From positions 17,625-81,624 of IMG/VR virus record IMGVR_UViG_3300031566_000011: 64,000 nt of DNA; one strand, 5' to 3'. Positions within the stretch are counted from its first letter, which is position 1. Every line of letters starts with the position of its first letter. Of this stretch, positions 2,989 to 58,828 are shown in pieces. The notes under the pieces are model-generated. The model did no database searches, had not been told where the DNA came from, and saw nothing but the letters and a program-made list of their open reading frames with translations. The translations under genes and the position numbers were made by a program. This DNA comes from a virus (lineage: Duplodnaviria; Heunggongvirae; Uroviricota; Caudoviricetes).

Positions 2989-3446
2989 TGAATTTTGCAT
3001 CATCGGGACTACAACCAGAAACTTTAAAAGATTGGCATGTTATAAATTTACCGATTTTAAATAAAAGAAATGTTCCTTTACGTTTACGTGCAGGTTTGGA
3101 TCAAGCTGCAAATTTTGTTAAACAGGATTTATATAAAAAGTTAAGTAATATTAAAAGAAGAACAGGAAGACGATATGTTATAGATGGAAAGGTTCATATT
3201 GCTTCTAGTGTGGCTGGAAATGAATATCCAGCAGAATTAAAAGGACATTTAAGAAATAGCATTAATATAAAAGTAGAGGGTGTAGATGAATTCCAAGTTT
3301 TTTCAAATTCCAGTGAAGAATATGTAAATAAGTTAGAAAATAGTCAAAGACATTATTTAAAAAGAAATATAGAAGAAAATAGAGATATAATAAGAAAAAG
3401 AATACATGATGCGATAATAAGAGGTATGAAGGATGGTATATTTTAA
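2988..3446 (+). CDS. hypothetical neck/tail-completion protein
   Basis: 152-aa ORF. Its position between connector and sheath genes is typical of neck proteins. Confidence 0.25.
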   Translation: MNFASSGLQPETLKDWHVINLPILNKRNVPLRLRAGLDQAANFVKQDLYKKLSNIKRRTGRRYVIDGKVHIASSVAGNEYPAELKGHLRNSINIKVEGVDEFQVFSNSSEEYVNKLENSQRHYLKRNIEENRDIIRKRIHDAIIRGMKDGIF

Positions 3447-27469: not shown

Positions 27470-28138
27470 TTAATTATTTTTTAAAAAACATAATCTATCC
27501 AATCCAATAGAAATTTCAAAATTATTTATATTATTTTCAAAGTCATTCCTTAAAGACATACTACACACTTCTAAACCATTTATTATAATATCAGTAGTTT
27601 CAAGTGAATATTTAGGTAATCTGTCTGATAATTCCATTTCTACTTTATATTTACTAAATTCATTTTCATAAAAACTAAATATAAACTCTTTTAATATGTT
27701 TGGATAATCCGCTTTTGTTGTATTAGAGTATAATAATTGAAATTCTAATTGATAAAATTCTTTTAATCTTATGTTTTTAAAAGTTTTATCTTGTTCGTTT
27801 CTGAAAGATTTTCCAGATTGCCAAACACATAATGGAAGTTTAGCTTCATAATGTTTTAATAAATATTTCGCAATATTATAGCTCCCCTTTGTTGTTTCTG
27901 GTCTTAAACAAAAATCCTCATTAGTTTCAAATATATAATTTTTTTCTAAAAAATATTCATTATCTATACTTTCCTTATCTTGCAATAATGACGTTTCTAT
28001 TTGCCTAAAGTCAATTGCTTTATTTAATCTAAATAATTTATTTTTCAATTCAATTGATATATTTTTTATAAGATATTCTCTATTGAAAATATCTTTTTCA
28101 TCATAAAAAACAAATCCATTATTATTTATATTTTGCAT
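27470..28138 (-). CDS. class II aminoacyl-tRNA synthetase-like mini-protein (GlyRS-like catalytic core fragment)
   Basis: CLRPETTKG…KLPLCVWQSGKSFRNEQDKTFKNIRLKEFYQLEFQ matches GlyRS (alpha2-type) motif 2 (LRPETAQG…KLPF…IGNSFRNE…IRVREFTMAEIE). ISIGLDRL resembles motif 3. Only 222 aa and no anticodon-binding domain. Confidence 0.45.
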   Translation of the reverse strand: MQNINNNGFVFYDEKDIFNREYLIKNISIELKNKLFRLNKAIDFRQIETSLLQDKESIDNEYFLEKNYIFETNEDFCLRPETTKGSYNIAKYLLKHYEAKLPLCVWQSGKSFRNEQDKTFKNIRLKEFYQLEFQLLYSNTTKADYPNILKEFIFSFYENEFSKYKVEMELSDRLPKYSLETTDIIINGLEVCSMSLRNDFENNINNFEISIGLDRLCFLKNN

Positions 28139-28158: not shown

Positions 28159-31100
28159 TTATTGATAATACTCTATTCCTTCAACATCCCCAGAATTACA
28201 ATTTTCACAGTAATCTATCAATCCTTTTACCATAGTGCCACATTTAGAACACACACTAAATTCTGGTGATATAACAATTTGAGCAGTATTTGTATTATCC
28301 CATGTTTTTTTAACTAAATTATATATTGATTCTTTTGAAGGAAGATTTTCCCCAACAAAAGCATGTATAATTGCACCTGCTGCAATTAATGAGTGAAATT
28401 TACTTTGTTTTTCTATTCTTTCTGTTATCGGCATATCAATTGATGCATTAAAATGTATACTGTTGGTGTAATAATATGTATCAAGATCATCCCCCTTTAT
28501 ATAATTTTTACTTATTGGATATTCTTTTAAATCAACCTTAGCAAGTCTCCTAGATGTAGATTCTGCTGGCGATTCTTCTATTACACATTTTAAGCCAAAC
28601 TTTTCTGTAAATTTTTTTGTCTTTAAAAACATATTTGTAATAATTTTAATTCCAATTTTAAATGTTTCATCATCTTCATGTAATTCTTTTTCAGTTAAGA
28701 ACTGGACACATTCATTTAATCCTATTACACCAAATATGTAAGATGCAGAATTAAGATCAATATATGGAAACCCATCGCATGATGGTTGTCCTACATTATA
28801 CATAGGTGATCCTTTTGTGTCAAACATTTTTTGAATAAATTTTCTTTTTTGTATATGTGCATTCATTGCAATATCCATAGAAATTAAAATATCATCTATT
28901 GCTTCTTGTATATTTCCTTTTCCTGCTCTATATGCAGCCTGTGCAAGATTTATTGTTACATTTTGAAACCCACAATATCTCATATGTTCTGGATTTGAAA
29001 TCATAAGCATATCTTGTTTATTCTTCTCATCTAATGTCGTGCGGAGTCTACAGCAGGAAGATAATGTAATAGCATCTCTATCAAAAATAAAATATATAGA
29101 ACCATTTTTACTAGTAACTTCACAAGCAAAATTTAATAATTCTTTTTCATTTTCACGTTCAAAACTATTTTTTGTTATATGTAGGTCTATTTTTGGAAAT
29201 TCGAACAATCTTCCATTTTTATCACCAATCATTACTACTTCCATAATAGCTTTTGCGAACATTTGCGATTCTTTTTCATATTCAAAATATGTTTTCCCAG
29301 TGTATTCTCCTCCTTGTCCAATAGCCTGAACACAGCTCAAACTTTCGGGAATACCAGTATGTAGATTAAAATCAGTGAATAATGTATTATGTGCAAATAA
29401 TCCACACCCTAATAAAAAATTTTCATGTTCCCTAACAGAAATATCATAAACATATTCATCCTGTTCAGTGCTTTTATTTATACTAATTACTTCTAACGGT
29501 AATAATTTAATAGATTTTTCTATGTTGGTTATTAGTGTCTCCATTAAATTAATTTGGTTTTTTATTATTGTTTTTGCCATTTCAAATACTTTATCATTTT
29601 CTATATCTCTCATACAAAAGTTTCTATTAAATGTGTTTTGTAATGTATTTTTTGAAATATTATCAAATAAGTATAAATCCTCAAATACTTCCTTAATATT
29701 CTGTTTATTTATTTTAGTTGAATAAGATAAATATTCTTTAATAGCTTTTTTTGTTTTATCATATATTTCGTTTAATCTATTTTCTTTTATTTTATAACAT
29801 TTTAATGATATTTTACTTTTATAAACATTTTTTATATCTATTTTTAAATGATTATAATTATATTTTAATTGATTATAATTTTTTGTATTATTTATTTTAT
29901 GAGAATTAAAATTATTTAATAATTCATTTTTTTTATCATTATGCCTTTTTAGTAAAAAATCTATTTTATCAAAATTATCTATTCCTATAGTTAATCTATA
30001 TTGTTTTTTACTCTTTTTTACTAATTTATTATTTATAAATATATTTTTTTTAGGATAAATAATATCTTGCCTAACATTACATCCTATTTTTGAAAATGCT
30101 AAATGTAAATGCTTGGCTAAAATATTAGATACAGTAGAGCAACCAATCCTATTTTTACAAACCCATCCATCCCCTGATAAATATCCAGAAATAAAACTTT
30201 TAACAATATGTTTATTATTAAATAATATACAAGATGGGATTTGTTTTTCATAAACTATATTTCCAAACAAATTACAAAACAATATTCTTGCAAGTTTGTT
30301 TGATAATGTAACTTTATTTTTTTTTATAGATGCTTTTTTACCGAAAACATTGAAGAATAAATTTGAGATTATGGTTTTCATCTTTATACCTTCGAATATG
30401 TGTATTTCTATTGAATTGTCACATTCCCCACCATCTGCAACATACATGCCAGCCAATAATGCAAAATCATCATCAATATCTATAAACCTTTTTATTATAC
30501 CAATTTTATGTTTTTTATACCAAATATGAGTATTTGTATATTCAATTTCATCAATATCTTCTTTTGGAACATAATTCAATAAATCTATTTTTGGTATTTT
30601 TTTATTAATATCAAAATTAATATGACTTAAAAAATGTTCAGGCATAGAATTTGGATTGGTTTCATTTATTTTGCTATTTTTATCAATACTAAATAAACTG
30701 TGGTCTTCAGTAACACTTGTCTTTATTCCATTAGCACAAGTAATGTCTACTAATTTATTTTTTCTTTCATGTTTAACTGCCCCATAAATATCAGATAAAA
30801 CACATTCACCAGTTTCTTTGTTTAGACTAATCGCTTTATACTTATTTATATCATTCTTATTATCAAATTTATTATAAAATTCTTCTATGGTTGGAATTTC
30901 TATTTTTTGCGTAATTGTATTGTAAACATAAATAGTTTCACATCCTTTAATTGATTGCCCACCTCTAGAAAAGGCATTCTGTGACAAACTAAATACTAAA
31001 TATTGTGCTTCTTTTAACATTTCTTCATATGTCATACCAACTAAATATGGGGCATAAGATATGTTCACATATGATAACCCTAGTGCTCCTGCATAATATG

Positions 31101-33036
31101 CCTGCATAGATGCCAAGAATGTGTTTATATGACCTGTTAACGTATGTGCATGTTTTGCAGGTGAGGATTTTGTAGAAATATTATGTAAATCTAATCCATA
31201 TTTTTTTATATACTCAATAGAGTGAGCTCCACAATTATGTAATAACAACCCATTACTAGCAAACAATCCAGTTTCTGTTGTTATGTCATAAACAAAGTCT
31301 CTTTTATAATCAACTTCTTTAATATTTCTAACTAAATATGTGTCATGAAAAACTTTATTATCACAGAAAATAAAACTATTATTATCTATATGTTTTGATA
31401 TTTTATAAGACTTAGAAAATAGATGTTTTTTATCTTCTGATATATTAAAAGTTAATCTATATAAAGGATAATTAGCTTTAATTTTTGAATTTTTATAAAA
31501 CCCAACATAATTCAAGTTTGATTTTATTCCATTGTTTGTTAATATTTCTTGCATTTGTGATAATAAAACTTTTGAAGTTAATCTAATATTAATATTTGTA
31601 GAACTATTTTTTATAGTATTGCCTTTAAAGTTTTTAAGAGTTCCTTCTGCATCTATAACTCCATTAATTAAAGCAAATTGTTCATTTAATGATAACTCAA
31701 AAACATTGTTTGGAAATTGTCTTTGATATTGATAATATCCTAATGTTAATGTTTTTAATAAAAAATCTCTAAAACTTTTTTCATATATTCTAAAATATTT
31801 TTTCTCTTCATTATATCCAAATGAAATTTCTTTATCTATAAAGTATTGTTTAATGTTTTTTATATTTTCAATCCCAGTAACTGTTATATCATTATGGTTA
31901 AAACTTCCATCTCCTATAAACATTCCTAAAAAATAGCAAAAATCTTCGTCAAATTTTATTGTTTTGCCTTTAATTAAAACTTCTTTTTGTGTTTTAAAGT
32001 TATTTGTGTTAAAATTTTGCTCTATTAAAAAGTTATTTATTTTTACATCTTTTGCTTTTAATTCTATTATATTCGTATCAAATGTTTCAAGTTGGCTTTT
32101 AAATTGTCTATTGCAGTCTTTACATTTATAAGCCCTAGTATTTTTTATAATATTTTTATTACCATTTCTGATAACATTATTTGATTTACAATATTTACAT
32201 TCTGGCATATTAAAAGTATTTTTTTTAACTAACATAGAATGGTTTTCTGTCAATGTAACACTTTTTCCATTTAATGTTTGAATACTTAACATTCTTTTAT
32301 TGTTGTTTTTTATTTTTGTTACAAAATTAAGTGGTATAAATTTATTTTTCTCATAAATTTGGTATCCAATAGTTTTTTTTCTAAATATTCCTTCCTCAAC
32401 TTCTAACTCTTCTTTATCAATAGAATCGTATAAATTTTCCATAGAATATGATTTTATATTATTATTAATATCTTTTATAATAACGTGTTCATTATCTGGA
32501 AAACAATAAATTTTTTGGGGTGTTCCTAAATCATGTAAATGTATTCTACCTTTCAAATGTGCTTCTTTAACTTCTTTTGAAAATACATTATTTAAACCAT
32601 ATTGTTTTAATATTGTTTCTGATATTGCCATATTTACAGCTTCTGGATTATTCGCTACTATATTGCTATTTTCGTTGCTTTTATTAAACATTAAGTCTTC
32701 TATGGAATGTTTAGGCATCAAGTATGAGTCTTGTTGTTCTAACTGCTTTAAAAGTCCCATATCTAACAATTCATTATTAACAAGTTCTCTTATTAAACTT
32801 GTAGATAATGTTTTTATTCCAGAATTTATAATTTTCTCCTGTACTTTATGAGAAATTTCTATTGCAATATCTTTTTTTATATTGCTTTCTTCTCTTAAAA
32901 CTTCGACTATTTTATTGCTATCAAAACCTGTTAATTCATAATCAACTTCATCTTCTACTAATAAAACATTATCCGTACTATCTGCTTTATTATTTTTTTT
33001 CTTTTTTACTTTAATTTCTTTTATTTTATCTTCCAT
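28159..33036 (-). CDS. nrdD: anaerobic ribonucleoside-triphosphate reductase NrdD interrupted by two inteins
   Basis: N-terminal ATP-cone. NrdD signature HLKGRIHLHDLG. C-terminal Zn-ribbon CSKC…CENC. Extein sum is about 682 aa. Two insertions begin with Cys and end with HN followed by C/T. Confidence 0.85.
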   Translation of the reverse strand: MEDKIKEIKVKKKKNNKADSTDNVLLVEDEVDYELTGFDSNKIVEVLREESNIKKDIAIEISHKVQEKIINSGIKTLSTSLIRELVNNELLDMGLLKQLEQQDSYLMPKHSIEDLMFNKSNENSNIVANNPEAVNMAISETILKQYGLNNVFSKEVKEAHLKGRIHLHDLGTPQKIYCFPDNEHVIIKDINNNIKSYSMENLYDSIDKEELEVEEGIFRKKTIGYQIYEKNKFIPLNFVTKIKNNNKRMLSIQTLNGKSVTLTENHSMLVKKNTFNMPECKYCKSNNVIRNGNKNIIKNTRAYKCKDCNRQFKSQLETFDTNIIELKAKDVKINNFLIEQNFNTNNFKTQKEVLIKGKTIKFDEDFCYFLGMFIGDGSFNHNDITVTGIENIKNIKQYFIDKEISFGYNEEKKYFRIYEKSFRDFLLKTLTLGYYQYQRQFPNNVFELSLNEQFALINGVIDAEGTLKNFKGNTIKNSSTNINIRLTSKVLLSQMQEILTNNGIKSNLNYVGFYKNSKIKANYPLYRLTFNISEDKKHLFSKSYKISKHIDNNSFIFCDNKVFHDTYLVRNIKEVDYKRDFVYDITTETGLFASNGLLLHNCGAHSIEYIKKYGLDLHNISTKSSPAKHAHTLTGHINTFLASMQAYYAGALGLSYVNISYAPYLVGMTYEEMLKEAQYLVFSLSQNAFSRGGQSIKGCETIYVYNTITQKIEIPTIEEFYNKFDNKNDINKYKAISLNKETGECVLSDIYGAVKHERKNKLVDITCANGIKTSVTEDHSLFSIDKNSKINETNPNSMPEHFLSHINFDINKKIPKIDLLNYVPKEDIDEIEYTNTHIWYKKHKIGIIKRFIDIDDDFALLAGMYVADGGECDNSIEIHIFEGIKMKTIISNLFFNVFGKKASIKKNKVTLSNKLARILFCNLFGNIVYEKQIPSCILFNNKHIVKSFISGYLSGDGWVCKNRIGCSTVSNILAKHLHLAFSKIGCNVRQDIIYPKKNIFINNKLVKKSKKQYRLTIGIDNFDKIDFLLKRHNDKKNELLNNFNSHKINNTKNYNQLKYNYNHLKIDIKNVYKSKISLKCYKIKENRLNEIYDKTKKAIKEYLSYSTKINKQNIKEVFEDLYLFDNISKNTLQNTFNRNFCMRDIENDKVFEMAKTIIKNQINLMETLITNIEKSIKLLPLEVISINKSTEQDEYVYDISVREHENFLLGCGLFAHNTLFTDFNLHTGIPESLSCVQAIGQGGEYTGKTYFEYEKESQMFAKAIMEVVMIGDKNGRLFEFPKIDLHITKNSFERENEKELLNFACEVTSKNGSIYFIFDRDAITLSSCCRLRTTLDEKNKQDMLMISNPEHMRYCGFQNVTINLAQAAYRAGKGNIQEAIDDILISMDIAMNAHIQKRKFIQKMFDTKGSPMYNVGQPSCDGFPYIDLNSASYIFGVIGLNECVQFLTEKELHEDDETFKIGIKIITNMFLKTKKFTEKFGLKCVIEESPAESTSRRLAKVDLKEYPISKNYIKGDDLDTYYYTNSIHFNASIDMPITERIEKQSKFHSLIAAGAIIHAFVGENLPSKESIYNLVKKTWDNTNTAQIVISPEFSVCSKCGTMVKGLIDYCENCNSGDVEGIEYYQ
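29386..30942 (-). mobile_element. intein 2 in NrdD (519 aa) with LAGLIDADG homing endonuclease
   Basis: Begins …GGQSIKG|CETIYVY and ends …GLFAHN|TLFTDF. LAGLIDADG motifs FALLAGMYVADGGE and KSFISGYLSGDGWV. Confidence 0.7.
31234..32505 (-). mobile_element. intein 1 in NrdD (424 aa) with LAGLIDADG homing endonuclease and C2C2 zinc finger
   Basis: Begins HDLGTPQKIY|CFPDNEHV and ends …GLLLHN|CGAHS. Internal LAGLIDADG motifs FCYFLGMFIGDGSF and FALINGVIDAEGTL. Zn finger CKYCKS…CKDCNRQF. Confidence 0.7.
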
Positions 33037-43283: not shown

Positions 43284-44095
43284 CAGACAAAGGAGATTTG
43301 GGTTTGCCAACACCTCAGATTACTCTATGGCAAGGCGATTGTTTAGAGGAAATGAAACGTATCCCTGATAGATCAGTGGATATGGTGTTGACAGACCCTC
43401 CATAGCTATATGGAACTACGGCTTGTAAATGGGATTCTATAATATCACTTAAGCCTATGTGGGAACATTTAAATCGCTTGATTAAACCTAGTGGTGCTAT
43501 CGTTATGACAGCTAGTCAGCCATTTACTACCACAATGATAGCGTCTAATATGAAAATGTTTAAGTATTGTTGGTATTGGGAAAAAGAAAGAATTACAAAT
43601 CCTTTACAATGTAAAAGACGTGCTGGTAAAACAATAGAGGAATGTGTTGTTTTTTATAAGAAGCAACCAACATACAATCCTATACGCAGAATACATAAAG
43701 GTAATTTAGTAAAAAATACACCAAAGGGCACACACACTAAAACAAGTGCTTTAAACAAATTAAAAGTTACACCATATATCGACAATGGAACAAGGTATCC
43801 TACACAGATTATTAAATTTAACAGGGATTTAAACAAACTCCATCCTACTCAAAAACCAGTAGCACTAATGGAATACCTAATAAAAACATACACTAATTCT
43901 GGTGAAACAATCTTAGACTTTGCAATGGGGAGCTCCACTACGGCAATCGCTTGTCTCAACACTAAGCGAAGTTTTGTAGGTATTGAAAAAGATGAGCATT
44001 ATTTTCAAGTTGGAAAAGACAGATTAGAAAAACATTTATTAACACTTGACTACACACCCAAAATAAGCTATAATCAAGTAAATAAAAAATTATAA
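43281..44095 (+). pseudogene. DNA methyltransferase (N4/N6 beta-class, PF01555-like) with in-frame TAG replacing the Tyr of DPPY
   Basis: MTDKGDLGLPTPQITLWQGDCLEEMKRIPDRSVDMVLTDPP-TAG-LYGTT…HPTQKP…LDFAMGSSTT…. Single open frame except TAG at 43405-43407. GC-richer than surrounding DNA. Confidence 0.5.
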
Positions 44096-44274: not shown

Positions 44275-44302
44275 TTGACAAATAAATTATAATATATATA
44301 AT
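44275..44302 (+). promoter_or_regulatory. sigma70-like promoter upstream of tRNA-like RNA cluster
   Basis: TTGACA (44275-80) - 16 nt - TATAAT (44297-302). Confidence 0.4.
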
Positions 44303-44358
44303 TGTATATAGATGTTGTTTTATATATTTTCCAAATCATTGGCGTATAATAGAGATAC

Positions 44359-44407
44359 TTCGTCTGATAAACGACAGGTCGTAGGTTCAAATCCTACTAG
44401 ACCACCA
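44359..44407 (+). tRNA. tRNA-Ile(GAU)-like 3' half (positions 27-76)
   Basis: TTCGT-CTGATAA-ACGAC anticodon arm (loop CUGAUAA, anticodon GAU), variable AGGTC, T arm GTAGG-TTCAAAT-CCTAC, TAGACCA + CCA. Confidence 0.5.
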
Positions 44408-44434
44408 AAGTCTATAGCTCAGGTTGGTAGAGCG
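44408..44434 (+). tRNA. tRNA-Ile-like 5' half (positions 1-26)
   Basis: AAGTCTA-TA-GCTC-AGGTTGGTA-GAGC-G. D arm almost identical to the bacterial tRNA-Ile D arm. GTCTA pairs with the TAGAC of the preceding piece. Confidence 0.45.
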
Positions 44435-44530
44435 GTAAAGAGTTCTCTATTATATTGCTATATGGGTTGGAATTTTTTAAAATTAAAAGATAGATAGTGT
44501 ATAATACAAACACTTTAAAAATAAATATAT

Positions 44531-44685
44531 TGTGCAGTGGAGAAATTAGTAGCCTCTTATTGATTCGGTGTTAAGTTGCAACTAACTTGCAAGATAGAGT
44601 AACCTCTGGAACGATGAAGCTGAATACCTCTATGCCGAAGGTAAGATTCAAAGTCAGCGAGTGGGTGCAATTCCCACCTGCACAT
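44531..44685 (+). ncRNA. tRNA-like RNA A (about 155 nt) with about 90-nt insert in the anticodon region
   Basis: 7-bp closing stem TGTGCAG/CTGCACA, D-arm-like GAGA-AATTAGTAG-CCTC, T arm GTGGG-TGCAATT-CCCAC. No contiguous anticodon hairpin. Internal hairpin TTGCAA-CTAAC-TTGCAA. Confidence 0.35.
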
Positions 44686-44712
44686 AATATTTATAATAAC
44701 TCGCCAAGAAAA

Positions 44713-46070
44713 CCGCATGTTCTTTAGACGTGCGGATGAATTGGCGTATTTCTTTCAATTTTTGATGTATTTAAGCACTTAAAAACATTTTTTGCATAAA
44801 ATAACAAAACAACAAGGAAGTCAAGATGTTTGTTAGGTATAATTACCGATTAAAACCAACGCCAGAGCAAGACCAACTGCTACGTCAAGTGGCAGGTAGT
44901 CAACGTTGGCTTTGGAATCACTTTCTTGCACAAGAAATAAAGCAATATAAAAAAGATAAATCGTTTAATTTCTACAATAAAAATGCAGCATCTTTACCAA
45001 GTCTTAAAAAGGATTATGAATGGTTAAAAGATGGACCATCTCAATCCTTACAGCAGACTTTGAAGGATTTGAATAATGCATTGAGTAATTCATTCAAAAA
45101 ACCAGAGCGTGGCTTCCCTAAATTTAAGAAGAAGAAAGAATTTAATGAGACCTTTCGTGTTGTTCAAACCCCTGAGAAATGGAAAGGCAAATACGGACAT
45201 ATCTATATAGATATACCTAAAATTGGTAAAGTGAAATGGAACTACCATCGTTCTTTACCAAATACCTTTAGTACTGCTACTGTATTGCTTGATGGAGATA
45301 AGTGGTATATTAGCATAGTTATAGATGTAGAAACAAAACAGCCTGTTGATATAAAAAATATAAATCAAGTAGTAGGAATTGATTTAAATAGCAAAATGTT
45401 GGTTGTTACATCAGATGGAGAACTAATAGATAACCCTAAGTTCTTCAAACAACAAAAACAACGCATTGCCAAAAAGCAACGCCAAATAAGCAAGAAAACA
45501 AAAGGTTCAAATAGATACAAAAGAAAACAAAAAGAGCTATATAATGCTCATAAAAACGCAAGACATCAAAGAACCAATCATTTACATCAAGTCTCAAATC
45601 AGATAACCAATGATTATGATTTGATTTGCACAGAAGACCTAAACGTAAAAGGAATTCAACAATTTAATGGCACTATAGTTAATGATGCAGGATGGTCCAG
45701 ACTGTTAGAAATGATAAAATATAAATCTTTGTTGAAGGGTAAGCATATGGTACAAATACACCGTTTTGCACCCTCAAGTAAGACTTGCAATCATTGTGGA
45801 ACAATGAAAACCATTAAGTTATCAGAAAGAACATATAGTTGTGAAAATTGTGGAACTACTTTAGATAGGGATATAAATGCCGCACTAAATATACGTGATT
45901 GGGGTTTGTTTGATTTTAATACTCCTGGGACGGGAGAAATTTACGGACGTGGAGATACCTCTGTTGGGGTAGATAAGTCAGGACACTTACCTACTAGATA
46001 CGTATCATTGAATCGTCAAAAGTTCCAAAGCAATATGTCTTTGGAAGCCAAGTGATCTTTAGTCGCTTGG
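44713..46070 (+). mobile_element. IS200/IS605-family tnpB-only element (IS1341-like)
   Basis: LE hairpin CCGCATG-TTCTTTAGA-CGTGCGG (44713-35) and RE hairpin CCAAGTGA-TCTTTAG-TCGCTTGG (46048-70) share the loop motif TCTTTAG. They enclose tnpB. Confidence 0.45.
44826..46055 (+). CDS. tnpB: TnpB (OrfB) RNA-guided nuclease family protein
   Basis: MFVRYNYRLKPTPEQ… N-terminus. RuvC-like core. C-terminal Zn finger CNHCG…CENCG. 409 aa, typical IS605 OrfB. Confidence 0.8.
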   Translation: MFVRYNYRLKPTPEQDQLLRQVAGSQRWLWNHFLAQEIKQYKKDKSFNFYNKNAASLPSLKKDYEWLKDGPSQSLQQTLKDLNNALSNSFKKPERGFPKFKKKKEFNETFRVVQTPEKWKGKYGHIYIDIPKIGKVKWNYHRSLPNTFSTATVLLDGDKWYISIVIDVETKQPVDIKNINQVVGIDLNSKMLVVTSDGELIDNPKFFKQQKQRIAKKQRQISKKTKGSNRYKRKQKELYNAHKNARHQRTNHLHQVSNQITNDYDLICTEDLNVKGIQQFNGTIVNDAGWSRLLEMIKYKSLLKGKHMVQIHRFAPSSKTCNHCGTMKTIKLSERTYSCENCGTTLDRDINAALNIRDWGLFDFNTPGTGEIYGRGDTSVGVDKSGHLPTRYVSLNRQKFQSNMSLEAK

Positions 46071-46108
46071 TAGTTCACATGCACTTGAAATATAACTAAA
46101 GGAATATT

Positions 46109-46369
46109 ATGAAAAAAAATAAAAAAGAAATATTAAAAAAAATAACAAAAACAGAAGTATTTGAAAATATCAAGAAGGCTATTTTTCTTGGTGTTATTAT
46201 TAGCTATATTTTATATTATACAGGAAATAAGAATTCATTAGATATAAAGAGTATTATTAAATTACAGGCATTTATTTATTGTTTAGATGTATTTATAGAA
46301 TATAATATAAAATATATCATTGCGATATATTCAACAATAAAAGAAAGTTTATATATTGATAAAGAATAG
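46109..46369 (+). CDS. hypothetical small membrane protein
   Basis: 86 aa with TM segment AIFLGVIISYILYYTG. Confidence 0.25.
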   Translation: MKKNKKEILKKITKTEVFENIKKAIFLGVIISYILYYTGNKNSLDIKSIIKLQAFIYCLDVFIEYNIKYIIAIYSTIKESLYIDKE

Positions 46370-46409
46370 GATTGTAGCTCAATGGTAGAGCATTACACTG
46401 TTAATGTGG
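46368..46409 (+). tRNA. tRNA-Asn(GUU) 5' fragment (acceptor-5', D arm, anticodon arm; no T arm or 3' end)
   Basis: AGGATTG-TA-GCTC-AATGGTA-GAGC-A-TTACA-CTGTTAA-TGTGG. Canonical through the anticodon arm, then runs into the methylase fragment ORF. Confidence 0.4.
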
Positions 46410-46742
46410 TGGTTGAAAACTAACAAAGATGGTTCTCCCTTCTTTGGAATAGGATATTATGCCAAGTCAAACCAAGAAGTTTGTTTATTAGCCGTAAAAG
46501 GGAAGGGGCATTCTTTAGTCAAATCAAATAGCGTGTCAAGTTTTGTTAGTACAAACAGAACTAAACATAGCGAAAAGCCACAAATATTCAGGGATAAAAT
46601 TGTTGAGCTGTTCGGTGATTTACCACGAATAGAACTTTTTGCCAGACAAAAGACAGAAGGTTGGGATGCATTAGGATTTGATATTGATGGAAAAGACATA
46701 AAAGAAAGCATACAACTACTTGCACAAAATAAATCTTTGTGA
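46404..46742 (+). pseudogene. MT-A70-family adenine methyltransferase, C-terminal fragment
   Basis: …GIGYYAKSNQEVCLLAVKGKG…KHSEKPQIFRDKIVELFGDLPRIELFARQKTEGWDALG matches the MT-A70 C-terminal pattern. The DPPW catalytic N-terminal half is absent. Confidence 0.45.
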
Positions 46743-47023: not shown

Positions 47024-47224
47024 TTGCTTTTTAACCAGAAATGTAGTATATTTAAGGAGTGGAATATGAAAGTCATAAAGGTAACGAAAGAGTATTTCCA
47101 GACGGAAGACGAGAAAGTTTACTTCTTCGAGCCTTTGGAAAATGAAATATCCGTTGAGGATATGCAGAAGATTGTTGATGCAAACGAAAAGCTAGTTAAG
47201 GATTTGAAAGATGGAAGTAAATAA
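47024..47224 (+). CDS. hypothetical small protein
   Basis: 66-aa ORF with RBS AAGGAG. Overlaps the start of the following methylase gene. Confidence 0.25.
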   Translation: MLFNQKCSIFKEWNMKVIKVTKEYFQTEDEKVYFFEPLENEISVEDMQKIVDANEKLVKDLKDGSK

Positions 47225-47972
47225 AATCTACTGTGAAAACTGCATTGATACTATGTCAAAAATGCCAGATGGTTTTGTTGATGTAATAGTAACAAGTCCA
47301 CCTTATGACGGATTACGAACCTATAATGGATATTCATTTCCATTTAAGGATATTGCAAAAGAATTATTTAGGGTAACAAAAGATGGCGGCGTGGTTGTTT
47401 GGATTGTTAGCGATGCAACTGTAAAAGGTAGTGAAAGTGGAACAAGTTTTAGACAAGCATTATACTTTAAAGAGATTGGATTTAATTTGCACGATACAAT
47501 GATGTATAAAAAGATAAACTATATTCCATTAACACATAATAGGTATGAGCAGGAGTTTGAATATATGTTCGTTTTTAGCAAAGGGAAGCCTAAAACCTTT
47601 AAACCTATAATGGTTGAGTGTAAAACAAAAGGAAGGAAAACAAATGGTAGAACATTTTATCAAACAAATAGCCAAAATACGCCAACAAAAGGACATAAAA
47701 ACGATGCAGTAAAAAAATATAAGCAAAAGGGAAATGTTTGGGAAGTACCTACTAATGCAGGGACAAAAGGACATCCTGCACAATTTCCAGAACAATTAGC
47801 AAACGACCATATCCTTTCTTGGAGCAATTATGGAGATTTAGTTTATGACCCATTTATGGGCAGTGGAACAACTGCAAAGATGGCTATCCTAAACAAACGA
47901 AATTATATCGGTAGCGAAATATCAAAAGAATACTGTGAAATTGCAGAGAAGAGAATAAATGAAAATATATAA
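47211..47972 (+). CDS. DNA methyltransferase (N6-adenine/N4-cytosine, beta class)
   Basis: SPPY (…VDVIVTSPPYDG…), HPAQFP, DPFMGSGTT motifs in beta-class order. 253 aa. Confidence 0.7.
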   Translation: MEVNKIYCENCIDTMSKMPDGFVDVIVTSPPYDGLRTYNGYSFPFKDIAKELFRVTKDGGVVVWIVSDATVKGSESGTSFRQALYFKEIGFNLHDTMMYKKINYIPLTHNRYEQEFEYMFVFSKGKPKTFKPIMVECKTKGRKTNGRTFYQTNSQNTPTKGHKNDAVKKYKQKGNVWEVPTNAGTKGHPAQFPEQLANDHILSWSNYGDLVYDPFMGSGTTAKMAILNKRNYIGSEISKEYCEIAEKRINENI

Positions 47973-49980: not shown

Positions 49981-50140
49981 GGATATGTGGCGAAATAGGT
50001 AGACGCTAGTTGCGGTAAGATAGAACGTCTGGAAGTGTTGAATCCGAGAGCTGTTTCATGCGAAACTTTCTAACATGTTAAAATCCAGTATCTGGATACG
50101 AATCGACTATCATGCAAGGTGCAAATCCTTGCCATATCCA
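49981..50140 (+). ncRNA. tRNA-like RNA B (about 160 nt) with about 92-nt insert in the anticodon region
   Basis: Acceptor GGATATG/CATATCC+A. D arm GCG-AAATAGGTAGA-CGC (tRNA-Leu/Tyr-like). T arm CAAGG-TGCAAAT-CCTTG. Split anticodon stem AGTTG…CGACT. Insert shares AAGATAGA…CTGGAA…TGAA motifs with RNA A. Confidence 0.35.
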
Positions 50141-52067: not shown

Positions 52068-52805
52068 ATGAGCAAAAATGAATGTATAAAAATAAACCAT
52101 ATATATAATGATGATTGTGTTAATATAATTAAAAATATTAAAGATAATGATGTAGATTTAATAGTAACAGATCCACCTTATGGCGTAGAATATGATAATA
52201 ATAAACTTTATAATGATAGCAAAAATCATGTGTTTTCTAAAGACCATATAAATTTATGGTTAAGCGAAATGTGTAGGGTTTTAAAACAAGGTAGCCATAT
52301 TTATATCTTTATTCCTACCTTAGAGGTTGATAAGTGGGTATATAATGTTAAAAAATATTTTGAATTTAAAAATATTATCACTACACAGACATATACATCT
52401 AATAGATATTTAAAAAATAACTTCAGTTTCATTTCTCAATTTGTAATTTTTGCATCAAAAGGAAAGTCAAAACCATTAAATAAGATAGACTTTATAAAAA
52501 CATCAAACTCATGGTTGAAAGATAAGCGAAATAATAATCCCAAAGAATACACATATCAATATCCTAATTTTATACAGGATATTAGAGCAAATATTAAACC
52601 AAATAGGCAATTAAAATTACAGCATCCTAACTCAAAATCAATAGATTTATGTGAAAAATTCATATTGCTTTCTTCTAATGAAAATGATATAGTATTAGAC
52701 CCTTTTGCTGGAAGTGGGAATATATTAAAAGCTGCAAAAAATGTTAATAGGAATTATGTTGGCATAGAACAGAGTAAAGAAATATTTGATAAAATAAAAA
52801 TTTAA
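52068..52805 (+). CDS. DNA methyltransferase (beta class N6A/N4C)
   Basis: DPPYG (…VDLIVTDPPYGVEY…), HPNSKS, DPFAGSGN motifs. 245 aa. Confidence 0.65.
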   Translation: MSKNECIKINHIYNDDCVNIIKNIKDNDVDLIVTDPPYGVEYDNNKLYNDSKNHVFSKDHINLWLSEMCRVLKQGSHIYIFIPTLEVDKWVYNVKKYFEFKNIITTQTYTSNRYLKNNFSFISQFVIFASKGKSKPLNKIDFIKTSNSWLKDKRNNNPKEYTYQYPNFIQDIRANIKPNRQLKLQHPNSKSIDLCEKFILLSSNENDIVLDPFAGSGNILKAAKNVNRNYVGIEQSKEIFDKIKI

Positions 52806-53449: not shown

Positions 53450-55573
53450 ATGAGTTTTGATCTTATGGGAACATTAAGCAATACTTCTCTAAATAAAAAT
53501 GAATATATTACTATTTTTGAATTATTATCTAATAGTATAGAGTCTTTTCATTTAAGAAAAAACGTTGACGAAAAAATAAATCAGTTATTTATAAATATCA
53601 CTTTATCAGAAGGAGATTTTAAAAGACATAATGATGCTCTTTTTTCTATAGAATTTCAGGATAATGGTATCGGATTTAACAAAAAAGAATGGGCAGCTTT
53701 TTGTACTCCAAATACAACGAATAAACGGTTGTTTCATTGTAAAGGAATAGGAAGAATTCAATTTTGGCATTATTTTGAAAATGTTAAAATAGACAGTAAT
53801 TATGAAGAAGAGAAAAAAAAATTAAACTTAAAAACTAACATTTTAGATAATTATACAAATGTAGATAATCTAAGCCAAATAAAAGAAATTGATCAGTCCG
53901 AAAATTTAAGCACAACAATTATTCTTTTAAACCCTAAAATTTATATCAAATATGCTGAATTTTTTCAAAATTTAAAAGGGATGATTCTTTCTATGTTTTT
54001 AGTTAAATTAGTTAGATTAAAAGATTCTAATATTGATTTTTGTATAAACATTAATAATGAAATAACCATTAAGCCTGAAGATGTTCCCATAGTTTTTAAA
54101 AATAAAGCTATTGAAGTTTTTTATAGAGATATTTATACAACAGATAGGATTGCTAAGAAAGAAAATTTTAATGTTGATATTTATAAAATTGGAAAGGATA
54201 AACTTAAATTAAGCTCAAAATATGCTAAAGGACATAGTGTTTTTTTATGTGTAAAAGATATTGCCGTAAAAAACATAATAAATGAATTTGTTAATAAAAA
54301 TGTTGTAACAGCAGATATTGATGGATTTTATTTTTTAATATTTGTTAGTGATATCCTAATAAATGAAAAAAATGGTTTTTTAGAATCAAAATTAGATGTT
54401 ACTCGATATTCTTTTAATATAAAAAAATCAATTGACGATGTTGAAAATGAGTTTGGCTTTGAAGAAGGGAGTAATGAAGTTATCGTTGAAAACGATATTG
54501 TTGAAAGTTTAGAAAAATTATTTGAAAAAGAAGAAATTTTTATATTTGATAAAAAACAAAAAGAAGAAATAATGAGAGAATTAAAAGAAAATTTTTGTAT
54601 AAATTCAGATGTTATTAAAAATTCTAATATTAGAATAAAATATGGGGAAGACCCAAAAACTGTTGCAAGTAGAATTTATAAACATTTCGCAGATAATTTA
54701 GTTAATACGTTTGATAGTGTAGTAAATATAAAAGAAGAAATAGAAAAAATAGATGTTAATCCTTTAAATGAAAATTGGCGTGAAGAAATAGAAAATAAAG
54801 CGCAAAATTTAGCGAGATTAAATAATAAAGAATATAATTTATTAACTATTTCAGAGCTAATGGAGCGTTTGTGTAAGGAAAAGCTTTTAGAAAAAGCAAT
54901 AAAAGGTGAATTAGCCTATGAAAAAAATGATAACAATAAAGATGAAAGTATAATTCACAATTTATTTTTTAAACAAAAATCTAATAGTTTAATAGAAAAA
55001 AAACATGATTTATGGATGTTCAACGAAGAATTTAATTATTTCAACTATATTTCTTCAGATAAAAACTTAAGGTCTATCGTTGACCCAGATACAAAGGACA
55101 AAATTTTTGATTTTAATGATGAAAAATATCGTAAAGTATTTAATGAGTTGGGATTATCTGAAACTTACGGGGAAAAACATCGTCCAGATATAGCACTTTT
55201 CCATGAAGGGGATTCAATTGTTTTAATTGAATTTAAAGCTCCCGAAATAAAACTTCAATATCATACAAGCCAATTAATAAATTATGCAAGAATAATGGCA
55301 AATTTTATGGCTGATAAATATAAATTAATTTATAAAAAATATTATTTATATCTTATTGGTGGAGATTATGGATTATTAGACGATAGATTTAAAATAAATA
55401 AATTAATTGATGGTAGATATTTTGATAATGGAGAAATTTTAGATTTTAATTCAAACTCTAAGATTGCATCATATTATATCGAGTTAATGAAATATGACAA
55501 TCTTGAAAGATTGGTGAAAGTTAAAAATGACTTTTTTAGAAAAAAATTATTAGGGGAAGATGAGGTAAATTAA
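53450..55573 (+). CDS. GHKL-family ATPase fused to C-terminal PD-(D/E)XK nuclease-like domain (MORC/DUF3883-like)
   Basis: N-box FELLSNSIESF and G1 box FQDNGIGF near the N-terminus. C-terminal HRPDIALFHEGDSIVLIEFKAPE is a PD…(D/E)XK motif. 707 aa. Confidence 0.55.
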   Translation: MSFDLMGTLSNTSLNKNEYITIFELLSNSIESFHLRKNVDEKINQLFINITLSEGDFKRHNDALFSIEFQDNGIGFNKKEWAAFCTPNTTNKRLFHCKGIGRIQFWHYFENVKIDSNYEEEKKKLNLKTNILDNYTNVDNLSQIKEIDQSENLSTTIILLNPKIYIKYAEFFQNLKGMILSMFLVKLVRLKDSNIDFCININNEITIKPEDVPIVFKNKAIEVFYRDIYTTDRIAKKENFNVDIYKIGKDKLKLSSKYAKGHSVFLCVKDIAVKNIINEFVNKNVVTADIDGFYFLIFVSDILINEKNGFLESKLDVTRYSFNIKKSIDDVENEFGFEEGSNEVIVENDIVESLEKLFEKEEIFIFDKKQKEEIMRELKENFCINSDVIKNSNIRIKYGEDPKTVASRIYKHFADNLVNTFDSVVNIKEEIEKIDVNPLNENWREEIENKAQNLARLNNKEYNLLTISELMERLCKEKLLEKAIKGELAYEKNDNNKDESIIHNLFFKQKSNSLIEKKHDLWMFNEEFNYFNYISSDKNLRSIVDPDTKDKIFDFNDEKYRKVFNELGLSETYGEKHRPDIALFHEGDSIVLIEFKAPEIKLQYHTSQLINYARIMANFMADKYKLIYKKYYLYLIGGDYGLLDDRFKINKLIDGRYFDNGEILDFNSNSKIASYYIELMKYDNLERLVKVKNDFFRKKLLGEDEVN

Positions 55574-57269: not shown

Positions 57270-57773
57270 ATGATGGAGAAAAAAATGTCTTTAATACTTT
57301 ATACCTTTTTATTATTTTGTGGCTTACAAAGCTCTTTAATGCTTCCTAATTGGCACATTACGCCTGAGCAAGACACGCAACTTGAATGTAATGTTGATGT
57401 TTTTGATTGGGAGCTTTTATTAGATGCTTTACAAGATAAGGAATCTGATAATATTCCTAATGCAATTAATGTTATAGAAGATGCTGTGGGAATATTACAA
57501 ATAAGACCAATATATTTAAAAGATATAAATAGGATTATAGGATATAAAAGATATACATTAAAAGATAGATATGATATAATAAAATCAAGAGAGATGGTAA
57601 GGATATTTTTTTCATATTATGTAGATGATGAAAATATAAATGAAATTATTGCTATGCACTGTTCTGGACCAAAAGGAAAAGAAAAGTTAAAATATAATAA
57701 GCTCGTGATGCATTATGTTGATGATGTTTTAAAGATAAGAAATAAATTAATTATGGAGAATAAAAATAAATGA
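57270..57773 (+). CDS. hypothetical secreted protein (weak lytic-transglycosylase-like motif)
   Basis: Signal-like N-terminus MSLILYTFLLFCGLQSSLM. …IEDAVGILQIRPIY… loosely resembles the SLT E-S/GLMQ motif. Confidence 0.25.
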   Translation: MMEKKMSLILYTFLLFCGLQSSLMLPNWHITPEQDTQLECNVDVFDWELLLDALQDKESDNIPNAINVIEDAVGILQIRPIYLKDINRIIGYKRYTLKDRYDIIKSREMVRIFFSYYVDDENINEIIAMHCSGPKGKEKLKYNKLVMHYVDDVLKIRNKLIMENKNK

Positions 57774-58828
57774 TAAAATTAATTCATGGTGATTGTTTAA
57801 ATGTTTTAAAAAAGATTGAGAGTGAAAGCATAAACTGTGTAATAACTTCACCACCTTATTGGAATTTAAGAGATTACCAAACAGATTTATGGGAAGGTGG
57901 AAATATAGACTGCGATCATAAAATACCAATTAACGAAGTTGATCCTAAAAATCCGCAAGGCACAAGCCATAATGTAAGATTTATCAAAGAAAATTGTTAT
58001 AAGTGTGGTGCTAAAAGAATAGATAAACAAATTGGATTAGAGTCTGATTTTAGAACATATATTATAAATTTATGTGATATTTTTGATGAGATTAAAAGAA
58101 TATTAAAAAAAGATGGGACATGTTTTGTTAATTTAGGTGATACTTACATGAATAATAGTAGTTATTCAAACAGTGGCAGGCAAGGTTATGGTAACGATAA
58201 AATAGGAATGATTTATAAAAAAGACAATAAGGTATCCGAAAAATCTTTATGCTGTATCCCAGATAGATTTAAAATTGAGATGGTAGATAGAGGATGGATT
58301 TGTCGTAATGAAATTATTTGGAAAAAACCTAATTCTATGCCAAGTTCCGTAAAAGATAGATTTACATGTGACTTTGAGAAAATTTTCTTCTTTACAAAAA
58401 GTAAAAAGTATTGGTTCAAACAACAATTAGAACCATATGTAAAACAAATTAATAGATGGGGTGGAAATAAATTAAAATCAAATGGAAAAAGTGATTGGGA
58501 TAACGGAACTGGACAAAATACTTATAGATATAGAAATTTAAGAACAAATGATAATGGTAGAAATAAACGATGTGTATGGAGTATCCCAACACGTCCTTTT
58601 AAAGGTCAACATTTTGCAACTTTTCCAGAATTACTTATTGATCCAATATTGAAAGCTGGATGCCCAGAAGATGGAATAGTTTTAGATTGTTTTTTTGGTG
58701 CAGGCACAACAGGTGTAGTAGCTAAAAAACAAAACAAAAGGTGTATAGGAATAGAATTAAATAAAGAATATATTAAAATTGCCAAGAAAAGAATTAAAAA
58801 TACACAGGTTCAAGAAGAATTATTTTAA
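57770..58828 (+). CDS. DNA methyltransferase (beta class N4C/N6A)
   Basis: SPPYW (…INCVITSPPYWNLRDY…), HFATFPELL, DCFFGAGTT motifs. 352 aa. ATGA overlap with the previous gene. Confidence 0.7.
   Translation: MIKLIHGDCLNVLKKIESESINCVITSPPYWNLRDYQTDLWEGGNIDCDHKIPINEVDPKNPQGTSHNVRFIKENCYKCGAKRIDKQIGLESDFRTYIINLCDIFDEIKRILKKDGTCFVNLGDTYMNNSSYSNSGRQGYGNDKIGMIYKKDNKVSEKSLCCIPDRFKIEMVDRGWICRNEIIWKKPNSMPSSVKDRFTCDFEKIFFFTKSKKYWFKQQLEPYVKQINRWGGNKLKSNGKSDWDNGTGQNTYRYRNLRTNDNGRNKRCVWSIPTRPFKGQHFATFPELLIDPILKAGCPEDGIVLDCFFGAGTTGVVAKKQNKRCIGIELNKEYIKIAKKRIKNTQVQEELF

Follow-up and report, generated by a model that had tools for sequence, protein, structure and literature searches.

The window analysed here is a 64-kb stretch of an AT-rich tailed-phage genome (approximately 27% GC; positions 17,625 to 81,624 of IMG/VR record IMGVR_UViG_3300031566_000011), and at 44531-44685 it carries an element that we call RNA A. 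Judging from its sequence, RNA A is very probably a non-decoding scaffold RNA that was derived from a leucine transfer RNA (tRNA-Leu) and is related to a family of phage RNAs. The best explanation overall, which we consider reasonably probable, is that RNA A is the gene for a non-decoding RNA derived from a type II tRNA, in which the top half of the tRNA carries a folded domain of approximately 100 nt and which works by the mechanism proposed below. The specifics of that mechanism (processing, stability and the insert as effector) are put forward tentatively, with rather less assurance.

Architecture of RNA A

RNA A keeps the top half of a tRNA, with an acceptor helix, a T arm and a D arm predicted to form the elbow. 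All core pairs were Watson-Crick (7 of 7 in the acceptor helix, 3 of 3 in the D stem and 5 of 5 in the T stem) and stood in the order and spacing of a tRNA, following the plan UGUGCAG-UG-GAG-AAAUUAGUAGC-CUC-U-[103 nt]-GUGGG-UGCAAUU-CCCAC-CUGCACA-U (Table 1). An earlier reading made from the letters without database searches (the sequence-only reading) had described a perfect 7-bp acceptor-like helix (TGTGCAG/CTGCACA), a D-arm-like element 3' of its first strand and a perfect T arm with G instead of U55 (GTGGG-TGCAATT-CCCAC). All three were present, as were the hairpin TTGCAA-CTAAC-TTGCAA and the helix ending in CTCTAT (ATAGAG/CTCTAT). The same reading had given the insert about 90 nt; an insert was indeed found, but the stretch from the D stem to the T stem was slightly longer, at 104 nt.

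No contiguous anticodon hairpin (5-bp stem, 7-nt loop) was seen on inspection of RNA A, in agreement with the sequence-only reading, and ARAGORN called neither a tRNA nor a transfer-messenger RNA (tmRNA) over the whole window (0 genes). The covariance-model search that had been proposed as a check was run with Rfam 15 at E<=10, with the tRNA, tmRNA, intron, ribozyme and YrlA models included; it returned nothing over 44531-44685 or over 49981-50140, where a second RNA of this design (RNA B) is located. The TPsiC signature (U54-U55-C56) was missing from both RNAs, the T loop being UGCAAUU in RNA A and UGCAAAU in RNA B. The minimum free energy of RNA A was -44.1 kcal/mol with z = -2.2, a value that is mildly informative on its own. 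When the cloverleaf core was enforced, the energy was -41.6 kcal/mol, within 2.5 kcal/mol of the unconstrained fold; the corresponding values for RNA B were -38.5 and -39.9 kcal/mol, within 1.4 kcal/mol. The tRNA-like fold of both RNAs is energetically competitive by these predictions.

Two known RNA classes were considered for RNA A and rejected. It is not a tmRNA: there was no tag frame, position 3-70 was U-A in RNA A and A-U in RNA B instead of the G3-U70 of tmRNA, the D arm was complete, and both ARAGORN and Rfam were negative. Nor is it a YrlA RNA (RF02553), since RNA A is not permuted and no YrlA match was obtained on RNA A or RNA B.

A family of phage RNAs on the same plan

Related RNAs were sought in IMG/VR with a pattern that joined the D loop to the T loop (GAAATWRGTAG..gap..GGTGCAAWTCC) over three gap ranges. 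More than 100 loci were retrieved, representing approximately 70 distinct sequences, nearly all of them on the same plan. The 5' half consists of a 7-bp closing helix of free sequence, UG and GCG(G)-AAAUAGGUAGA-CGC (a D stem of 3-4 bp with an 11-nt loop); it is followed by an insert of about 40-180 nt, (C)AUG, a 6-bp T stem with the loop UGCAAAU and the 3' acceptor strand. The first T-stem pair uses the G of the conserved (C)AUG, giving an acceptor/T stack of 7+6 = 13 bp versus the usual 12 bp. The shortest non-decoding members were the size of a tRNA (93-100 nt) and still had no anticodon hairpin. The shortest relatives (86-87 nt) had an anticodon-like arm and a variable arm together with the loop UGCAAAU, and ARAGORN called them tRNA-Leu(GAG) or an undetermined tRNA.

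Covariation was measured on the cores of 54 distinct members with the inserts removed. In the core helices 97.0% of the cells were paired, versus 70.3% after column shuffling; sliding the 3' partners by 1-3 columns lowered the figure to 36-48%. Both sides had changed in 13 of the 16 core pairs, and the covariation score was 0.708 versus 0.168. The evidence here comes from the acceptor helix, the D stem and the four outer T-stem pairs, which the search pattern left unconstrained; the two innermost T-stem pairs and both loops were dictated by that pattern and are uninformative. The sixth T-stem pair covaried as well (GC 46, GU 3, AU 2, CG 2).

A covariance model (R1) was then built from 52 members of other phages, with RNA A and RNA B left out and the insert treated as an insertion, and was run with the filters off. 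It recovered RNA B at 67.4 bits (E ~6e-17) and RNA A at 31.2 bits (E ~1.5e-6), both with exact ends, and no third match was found in the window. Recovery of the exact ends by a model that contained neither RNA indicates that the arrangement of RNA A is more than chance. On the fetched loci, the same model scored members at 51-73 bits and ordinary tRNA-Leu genes at 22-41 bits. It also found 11 extra copies that the pattern had not, and the G55 T loop was kept in these.

When one genome was scanned for each of 185,579 bacterial and archaeal species, only 4 matches were obtained, showing that the family is essentially phage-borne. When GenBank phages were searched by blastn with the conserved core, 134 records gave a match; only the records ranked first took in both arms, and most rows covered one arm (20-30 nt) with weak E-values. 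By the first word of the organism name, these records belonged to Bacillus (31), Enterococcus (26), Lactobacillus (24), Listeria (20) and Leuconostoc (13), with fewer for Weissella, Paenibacillus, Brochothrix and others. A few low-ranking one-arm matches fell in phages of Bacteroides, Xanthomonas and Ralstonia; the listed records with the whole element were phages of Firmicutes. Whole members were read in Leuconostoc phage Ln-9, Enterococcus phage EFDG1, Listeria phages vB_LmoS_188 and B054, Bacillus phage SBSphiJ2 and a phi3T-SPbeta hybrid. Under the listed matches there was nearly always no annotation; the exceptions were protein-coding genes and one tRNA-Leu, and none was annotated as this RNA. 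The family is absent from Rfam 15, and full-text literature searches turned up no description of it; it could be among the 10,006 candidate phage RNAs catalogued in 2023 (PMC10690425).

Members occurred in tRNA arrays or in tandem, a few nucleotides from tRNAs or a tmRNA (some of them about 5 nt from a tRNA). They agreed in strand with the flanking gene in 39 of 41 cases upstream and 35 of 43 downstream. On nine contigs there was more than one member (two or three), each with an insert unrelated to the others; some of these lay in tandem with 10-60 nt between them. The window parallels these contigs in carrying both RNA A and RNA B.

RNA B and its probable kinship with RNA A

RNA B had all of the canonical features. 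Its D arm, GCG-AAAUAGGUAGA-CGC, was identical to the family consensus; 107 nt lay between the D stem and the T stem, and the T stem had 6 bp (GCAAGG/CCUUGC). RNA A departed from the consensus in its 5-bp T stem, in CGA instead of AUG, in A18 and in the loop UGCAAUU, and the model aligned it with one T-stem pair deleted. However, its D arm kept the family lengths and 8 of the 11 loop positions were those of the consensus. The G55 T loop (UGCRAAU/UGCAAUU) and the replaced anticodon arm were common to both RNAs.

Alignment of the two RNAs, which the sequence-only reading had recommended, was productive, revealing the common scaffold, the G55 T loop and an insert motif of approximately 20 nt (AAGAUAG..AAC.UCUGGAA). 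The motif had a local score of 22 versus 14.4+-2.3 in shuffled sequences, and only 3 of 500 shuffles reached it (p ~0.006). Read from the sequence, the helix at the motif differs compensatorily between the two, being AUAGAG/CUCUAU in RNA A and UAGAA/UUCUA in RNA B. The motif was rejected as a signature of the family, since a search of IMG/VR with the pattern AAGATAGA..TCTGGAA..TGAAT gave 23 loci that were all chance matches in coding DNA.

Because RNA A scored 31.2 bits against 67.4 for RNA B and was found in a single phage, we have filed it as a divergent, lineage-specific relative of the family and not as a core member. No close relative of the phage was found in GenBank phages (INPHARED, megablast) or in IMG/VR (searched via the SPFH protein), and exact-protein look-ups returned near-identical strains only, from soil or sediment metagenomes. 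RNA A yields no covariation of its own for this reason. It was identical in all 8 strain contigs, with or without the adjacent TnpB element, and RNA B showed a single C-to-A change at 50085 in some strains. The sequence-only reading had offered a tRNA-scaffolded non-coding RNA among its options, and as to identity this option is supported. That the scaffold is specifically tRNA-Leu-like, that a large family exists and that RNA A is an outlier of it went beyond that reading.

The variable insert

The insert domain is hypervariable; 66 inserts gave only 6 small alignable groups. Where orthologues could be compared (the SBSphiJ2/phi3T pair, the Listeria pair and a four-member group), insert helices were kept by compensatory change. 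The consensus fold of the four-member group had a type II outline in which the anticodon arm gives way to an elongated one and the place of the variable arm is taken by a short arm beside AU-G; the compensatory changes were in the long arm. The sequences suggest an H-type pseudoknot in the Bacillus SBSphiJ2/phi3T insert (CUAGG..AUGGN..CCUAG..NCCAU) and another in the Listeria pair (CAGGA..GAACUAAU..UCCUG..AUUAGUUC). A nested second T arm was present in 1 of 56 inserts, no more than in shuffles. UAAG was found in 30 members versus 25+-4 after shuffling, showing no enrichment; with a closing helix it occurred in 10 versus 4.2+-2.0, and it is at most a feature of a sub-clade. No copy of the RNA A insert was found elsewhere in the window or in 160 fetched loci.

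Proposed origin and mechanism

From its sequence the family looks like a derivative of a phage tRNA-Leu, since the D arm is of the type II tRNA-Leu kind and the smallest relatives are called tRNA-Leu(GAG) with a UGCAAAU loop. RNA A would be transcribed from its own promoter, and RNA B and most other members within an operon or a tRNA array. Owing to its top half, the RNA could then be cut at its 5' end by RNase P and processed at its 3' end by RNase Z or exonucleases, which would excise it and give it the stability of a tRNA. No terminator was found 3' of RNA A or RNA B, suggesting that their 3' ends are made by processing. Excision by RNase P and RNase Z or exonucleases is suggested by the intact top half, the placement in tRNA arrays or tandem, the missing terminators and, for RNA B, the fact that no promoter was found 5' of it. 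Having no anticodon loop, the RNA would be unable to decode; the 13-bp acceptor/T stack of the canonical members, possibly with the G55 T loop, may also bar it from EF-Tu and the ribosome. Staphylococcus aureus has tRNA-Gly species that serve outside translation and are without G18, G19, U55 and C56 (PMC4574755). The variable structured domain would be the working part, offering a binding surface for a phage or host partner, and several copies per phage would present unrelated inserts on one conserved handle. The invariant handle, the structured and selected yet unrelated inserts and the occurrence of several copies per genome point to the insert as the effector and the tRNA part as its handle.

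A bolder version, which we regard as rather unlikely, is a modular phage RNA platform in which the tRNA-Leu top-half handle carries exchangeable, partly pseudoknotted cargos that bind different host or phage targets. Such a target might be a defence nuclease, an RNA-binding protein or a ribosome-associated factor, and the RNAs would be collected in the way that anti-defence proteins are. As a sub-variant, the handle may be charged by the phage's own minimal class II synthetase-like protein.

Several results weigh against the proposed kinship and mechanism. The 31.2 bits of RNA A lie inside the range of tRNA-Leu genes (22-41) and well under that of the core members (51-73); since the scores overlap, what ties RNA A to the family beyond a general likeness to tRNA-Leu comes down to the G55 loop, the lost anticodon arm and one modest motif. 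RNA A is a singleton: it was absent from IMG/VR and from JGI metagenomes outside its own phage, and a search of the JGI metagenomes for A-type RNAs (loop UGCAAUU with the D arm) returned only the contig of this phage. The structure of its insert comes from thermodynamics only (the z value given above). At least one seemingly ordinary phage tRNA (locus L131, judged by eye) has the loop UGCAAUU, so that G55 by itself is no proof of exclusion from translation. The discriminator was unconserved in the family (A 25, U 17, G 5, C 2) and no CCA was encoded. No motif was common to all inserts. Clustering of the open reading frames (ORFs) that lay up to 4 kb from 51 members revealed no conserved neighbour protein, as even the largest groups (homing endonuclease, terminase) took in 4 loci. 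Finally, we infer the role of the insert as effector from the modularity of the family.

Alternative explanations

The main alternative to the insert as effector is that the conserved scaffold itself is a decoy, soaking up or misdirecting a host factor that reads the tRNA elbow or the acceptor end; the insert would be a spacer that removes decoding. A tRNA-targeting toxin, a defence nuclease, RNase P or RNase Z, the CCA-adding enzyme or a modification enzyme could be such a factor. The scaffold is indeed extremely conserved (D loop, UGCAAAU, G7-C66 and the 6-bp T stem), with hardly any inserts related to one another, the family is phage-specific with whole elements in phages of Firmicutes, and no antisense target emerged in the window, where the inserts of RNAs A and B had complementary stretches of at most 11-12 nt, no longer than in shuffles. 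However, comparable inserts are structured and their helices are kept by compensatory change, which would not be expected if the insert were a neutral spacer; dosage alone hardly explains why a phage should carry several divergent copies; and the discriminator and 3' end, which acceptor-end toxins would read, are unconserved. We consider the decoy unlikely and prefer the insert as the effector.

It is improbable that the element is cis-acting punctuation, i.e., an RNase P/RNase Z cleavage signal that parts or stabilises the flanking mRNAs of an operon, as in mitochondrial tRNA punctuation, with the excised RNA as a by-product. The position of RNA B would suit this explanation, lying 14 nt 3' of the stop codon of an SPFH-domain gene and 28 nt 5' of the next start codon (before the ribosome-binding site of that gene) and having neither promoter nor terminator; members run in the same direction as the genes on either side, and the Listeria and Leuconostoc members lie at operon ends or starts. 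However, RNA A has a promoter-like site of its own, and many members are in pure tRNA arrays or in tandem where there is no mRNA to separate. An ordinary tRNA would also suffice, leaving the G55 loop, the 6-bp T stem and the structured inserts of 40-180 nt unexplained.

A decaying tRNA-Leu pseudogene or a recombination scar without function is quite improbable. RNA A does lie in a recombination hotspot, with a TnpB element 9 nt away, a truncated tRNA-Asn and a truncated methylase gene downstream and neighbours that vary by strain; it is unique to this phage and scores like a generic tRNA-Leu. Decay is nevertheless hard to reconcile with 15 of 15 perfect Watson-Crick core pairs, a promoter-like site in front of the RNA, an unusual G55 loop shared with a family under clear selection and a second copy of the design (RNA B) kept in the same genome. 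The sequence-only reading had also thought of a tRNA disabled by a miniature insertion, which did not hold, as the insert is unrepeated, the core helices are perfect and the plan recurs in approximately 70 phage sequences. A miniature inverted-repeat transposable element or an insertion-sequence (IS) fragment within a tRNA gene was likewise rejected, the insert having no second copy and RNA A being the same in strains with and without the TnpB element.

The sequence-only reading had further proposed an intron-containing tRNA, in which the extra 80-100 nt or so would be removed by self-splicing or by a phage RNA ligase pathway to leave a working tRNA. tRNA-Leu is the classic host of bacterial group I introns, and strain variants of this phage encode a PF09414 RNA ligase. 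However, no group I or II intron or ribozyme model matched at E<=10 (Intron_gpI included), and inserts of 40-180 nt are too short and too diverse for group I introns, the core of which (P3-P8 with the G-binding site) takes about 200 nt or more. No pair of flanks in RNA A or RNA B could be joined into a 5-bp stem with a 7-nt loop containing U33, and an intron would not fit into the members of 93-100 nt, in which the anticodon arm is missing all the same. We regard the intron as very improbable.

Hardly to be credited is an aminoacylated carrier that, after CCA addition, is charged by the host leucyl-tRNA synthetase (LeuRS) or by the 222-aa class II synthetase-like protein of the phage and donates or sequesters an amino acid. 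Bacterial LeuRS does not read the anticodon, the D arm is of the tRNA-Leu type and a minimal class II synthetase-like core is encoded in the window at 27470-28138 (-). A deviation at U55 marks the non-translational tRNAs of staphylococci (PMC4574755). However, LeuRS needs A73, the discriminator is unconserved and is U in RNA A, the synthetase-like protein is absent from the flanks of all other members, and small siphoviruses carry the RNA without such an enzyme.

Relation to known RNAs

Like a type II tRNA-Leu, the family has a 7-bp acceptor, U8-G9, a 3-bp D stem with an 11-nt loop holding a GG dinucleotide (AAAUAGGUAGA in RNA B) and a T arm with U54, C56 and A58, and tRNA-Leu genes reach 22-41 bits with the family model. 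It differs in having no anticodon arm or anticodon, G55 instead of U55, a discriminator that is not fixed as A and a 6-bp T stem (5 bp in RNA A); further, RNAs A and B were missed by ARAGORN and by the Rfam tRNA model.

The presence of tRNA-like stable RNAs in phage tRNA clusters has been recognised since the 1970s, in the form of species 1 and 2 of phage T4 (rnaC and rnaD), for which we know of no assigned function. By annotation, these are stable RNAs of 119-139 nt at the end of the phage tRNA cluster. rnaC also has a T arm (CCGGG-UUCGAAU-CCCGG) and a strand that pairs imperfectly with the 5' end, framing about 95 nt. No homology was detectable, however: the family model matched the T hairpin only, at 6 bits, and the T4 RNAs have the canonical T loop UUCGAAU, no evident D arm of the tRNA-Leu type and a proteobacterial host. 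YrlA resembles the family in combining a tRNA-like module (T arm, acceptor-like helix and D arm) with a non-tRNA domain that replaces the anticodon stem, and it is also found in phages (PMC4201824). By contrast, YrlA is circularly permuted, ends in a Ro-binding stem, has its acceptor helix closed by a loop and has a canonical T loop, whereas the acceptor ends of RNA A are open. tmRNA shares the tRNA-like acceptor/T frame around a structured domain, and pseudoknots are suspected in some family inserts; it is larger (260-400 nt versus 100-230 nt for the family) and its D loop is reduced. The pseudo-tRNAs of Firmicutes (B. cereus tRNA-Other and the staphylococcal cell-wall tRNA-Gly) are kept from translation and depart from ordinary tRNAs in the D and T loops (PMC3399842, PMC4574755). 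Unlike the phage family, these are cellular genes with a normal anticodon arm, they are aminoacylated and their G18/G19 is changed too; the phage RNAs keep G18, G19 and C56 and change only position 55. The kind is thus known from T4 rnaC/rnaD, YrlA, tmRNA and the pseudo-tRNAs as tRNA-like non-coding RNAs, but the family appears to be new. Its own signature is the Leu-type D arm, the G55 loop, the 7+6 stack and the hypervariable insert.

The family extends a design like that of the T4 stable RNAs to a much larger, sharply defined and strongly covarying set. Members in tractable phages, including Bacillus phages of the phi3T type (SPbeta-like) and SBSphiJ, Enterococcus phage EFDG1, Listeria phage B054 and Leuconostoc phage Ln-9, make the old question of phage stable RNAs accessible to experiment. 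Should the variable domain prove to be an effector that can be exchanged, the family would be nature's version of the 'tRNA scaffold' engineered for RNA expression, and a new class of RNA in phage-host interaction. Annotation at present overlooks these loci or places probably spurious ORFs, such as B054 gp75, across them.

RNAs and features next to family members

In Enterococcus phage EFDG1 (NC_029009; locus L142, 1976-2530 and 3899-3999) a tmRNA gene (Rfam, 140.6 bits) and, directly behind it, a 205-nt member both lack annotation. By the coordinates of the two models, the first base of the member coincides with or adjoins the final base of the tmRNA gene, inside an annotated tRNA array; a weak YrlA match (28 bits) was observed 1.4 kb further along the same array. 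At locus L035 a ROOL RNA (2663-3235, -; Rfam, 271 bits) lies about 450 nt downstream of a member (3692-3791) beside phage tRNAs, a case in which a large ornate RNA and a family member have a common neighbourhood. A 197-nt relative at locus L036 (3735-3931, +; 45.5 bits) has an apparent extra insertion of about 90 nt in the D loop, between GGAAUAG and GUAGACGC, and the scaffold may tolerate insertions at more than one site.

In Listeria phage vB_LmoS_188 (A118-like; locus L144, 1249-1396) the small RNA rliG (Rfam, 97 bits) lies directly upstream, and by the coordinates of the model the member starts 5 nt after the rliG match. rliG was rejected as an Rfam counterpart of the family, since its match adjoins the Listeria member upstream and does not include it. 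In a related prophage, rliG is expressed in lysogens and dispensable for virion production (PMC7397523). The annotated ORF gp75 of Listeria phage B054 (locus L145) overlaps the 3' end of the family RNA and is probably spurious. A tie to three very abundant unannotated RNAs of Listeria phage CKA15/P100 was considered and not established (PMC12282133); the stretch of P100 that was examined contains structural genes, and the listed Listeria records of the family are siphoviruses, none of them P100-like.

Genomic setting and strain variation

The features of the region are collected in Table 1. The sequence-only reading had placed RNA A between a promoter-driven permuted tRNA and the left end of an IS605-family element, and this setting was borne out. 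The permuted RNA, which is YrlA-like, ends 67 nt upstream of RNA A; no Ro60/TROVE (Ro60/Rsr) domain was found among the window ORFs scanned. Downstream, the IS starts 9 nt beyond RNA A, which lies outside it. The occupied allele misses 46 nt of the empty-site allele, indicating that the IS event was not a simple insertion.

Table 1. Position of RNA A, its parts, RNA B and neighbouring elements in the window
Feature	Position	Strand	Basis or remark
RNA A, whole tRNA-like RNA (acceptor 5' strand to discriminator U)	44531-44685	+	sequence; covariance model R1 (exact ends)
RNA A acceptor helix, 5' strand UGUGCAG	44531-44537	+	7 of 7 pairs with 44678-44684 (CUGCACA), all Watson-Crick
RNA A U8-G9	44538-44539	+	read from sequence
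RNA A D arm GAG-AAAUUAGUAGC-CUC, A18 G19 (as DNA, GAG-AAATTAGTAGC-CTC)	44540-44556	+	3-bp stem, 11-nt loop; type II/tRNA-Leu type
RNA A domain in place of anticodon arm and variable region, 104 nt	44557-44660	+	thermodynamic prediction
RNA A candidate helix UUGAUU/AGUCAG	44560-44565 with 44652-44657	+	thermodynamic prediction
RNA A candidate helix UUCGG/CCGAA	44564-44568 with 44635-44639	+	thermodynamic prediction
RNA A hairpin UUGCAA-CUAAC-UUGCAA	44576-44592	+	specific to RNA A
RNA A motif AAGAUAGAGUAACCUCUGGAA, common with RNA B (50017-50034)	44591-44611	+	takes in the 5' strand of AUAGAG/CUCUAU
RNA A helix AUAGAG/CUCUAU	44594-44599 with 44628-44633	+	
RNA A T arm GUGGG-UGCAAUU-CCCAC	44661-44677	+	5 bp, G at position 55
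RNA A acceptor 3' strand CUGCACA and discriminator U	44678-44685	+	no CCA encoded
RNA B	49981-50140	+	canonical family member; 7-bp acceptor, discriminator A
Consensus promoter TTGACA, 16-nt spacer, TATAAT	44275-44302	+	12 of 12 matches; upstream of permuted tRNA-like RNA
Permuted tRNA-like RNA (T arm, closed acceptor-like helix, D arm)	44339-44464	+	Rfam YrlA 39.5 bits, E 4e-6 (gathering score 69)
Sigma-70-type promoter-like site (TTTAAA/TTAAAA, 17-18 nt spacer, TATAAT)	44476-44505	+	10 of 12 consensus matches; ends 25 nt 5' of RNA A
TnpB-only IS605-family element	44694-46078 (TnpB 44826-46055)	+	ends set by two empty-site strains, L154 and L157

Beyond the IS, the 5' two-thirds of a tRNA-Asn(GTT) gene (acceptor strand, D arm and anticodon arm; 46369-46413, +) ends where the T arm would begin and runs into a truncated MT-A70 methylase ORF of 112 aa (46404-46742). 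Strain L157 has the same fragment, but the DNA beyond it differs there and an intact 186-aa MT-A70 gene is present. From the sequences, the junction looks like a recombination scar at the T arm of the tRNA. DNA methyltransferase genes were unusually dense near the RNA genes, with four of the N6_N4_Mtase family (43457-44095, 47211-47972, 52068-52805 and 57770-58828) and the truncated MT-A70 within 15 kb, and their content differed between strains. A 707-aa gene downstream of a methylase (53450-55573) is swapped in some strains for other genes, including a PF09414 RNA ligase (L150 5856-6725 and L152 5243-6112), which hints at an RNA-repair theme in the variable region.

The window encodes a tape-measure protein, baseplate, NrdD, DnaB-primase, a sliding clamp and several DNA methylases, and it has three tRNA-like RNAs yet no tRNA gene that ARAGORN detects. 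The 222-aa protein (27470-28138, -) lies between the NrdD and sliding-clamp genes and comprises only a catalytic core like that of class II aminoacyl-tRNA synthetases (Pfam tRNA-synt_2b, 6e-9); its nearest solved structures are the cores of PylRS and GlyRS (~1e-6), and no homologue was found in the flanks of the other family members. At 1625 aa, the neighbouring ORF for an NrdD-like anaerobic ribonucleotide reductase (28159-33036, -) is roughly double the normal size. Its match to the family is confined to the C-terminal ~370 residues, and the ORF may include inteins or a fused domain.

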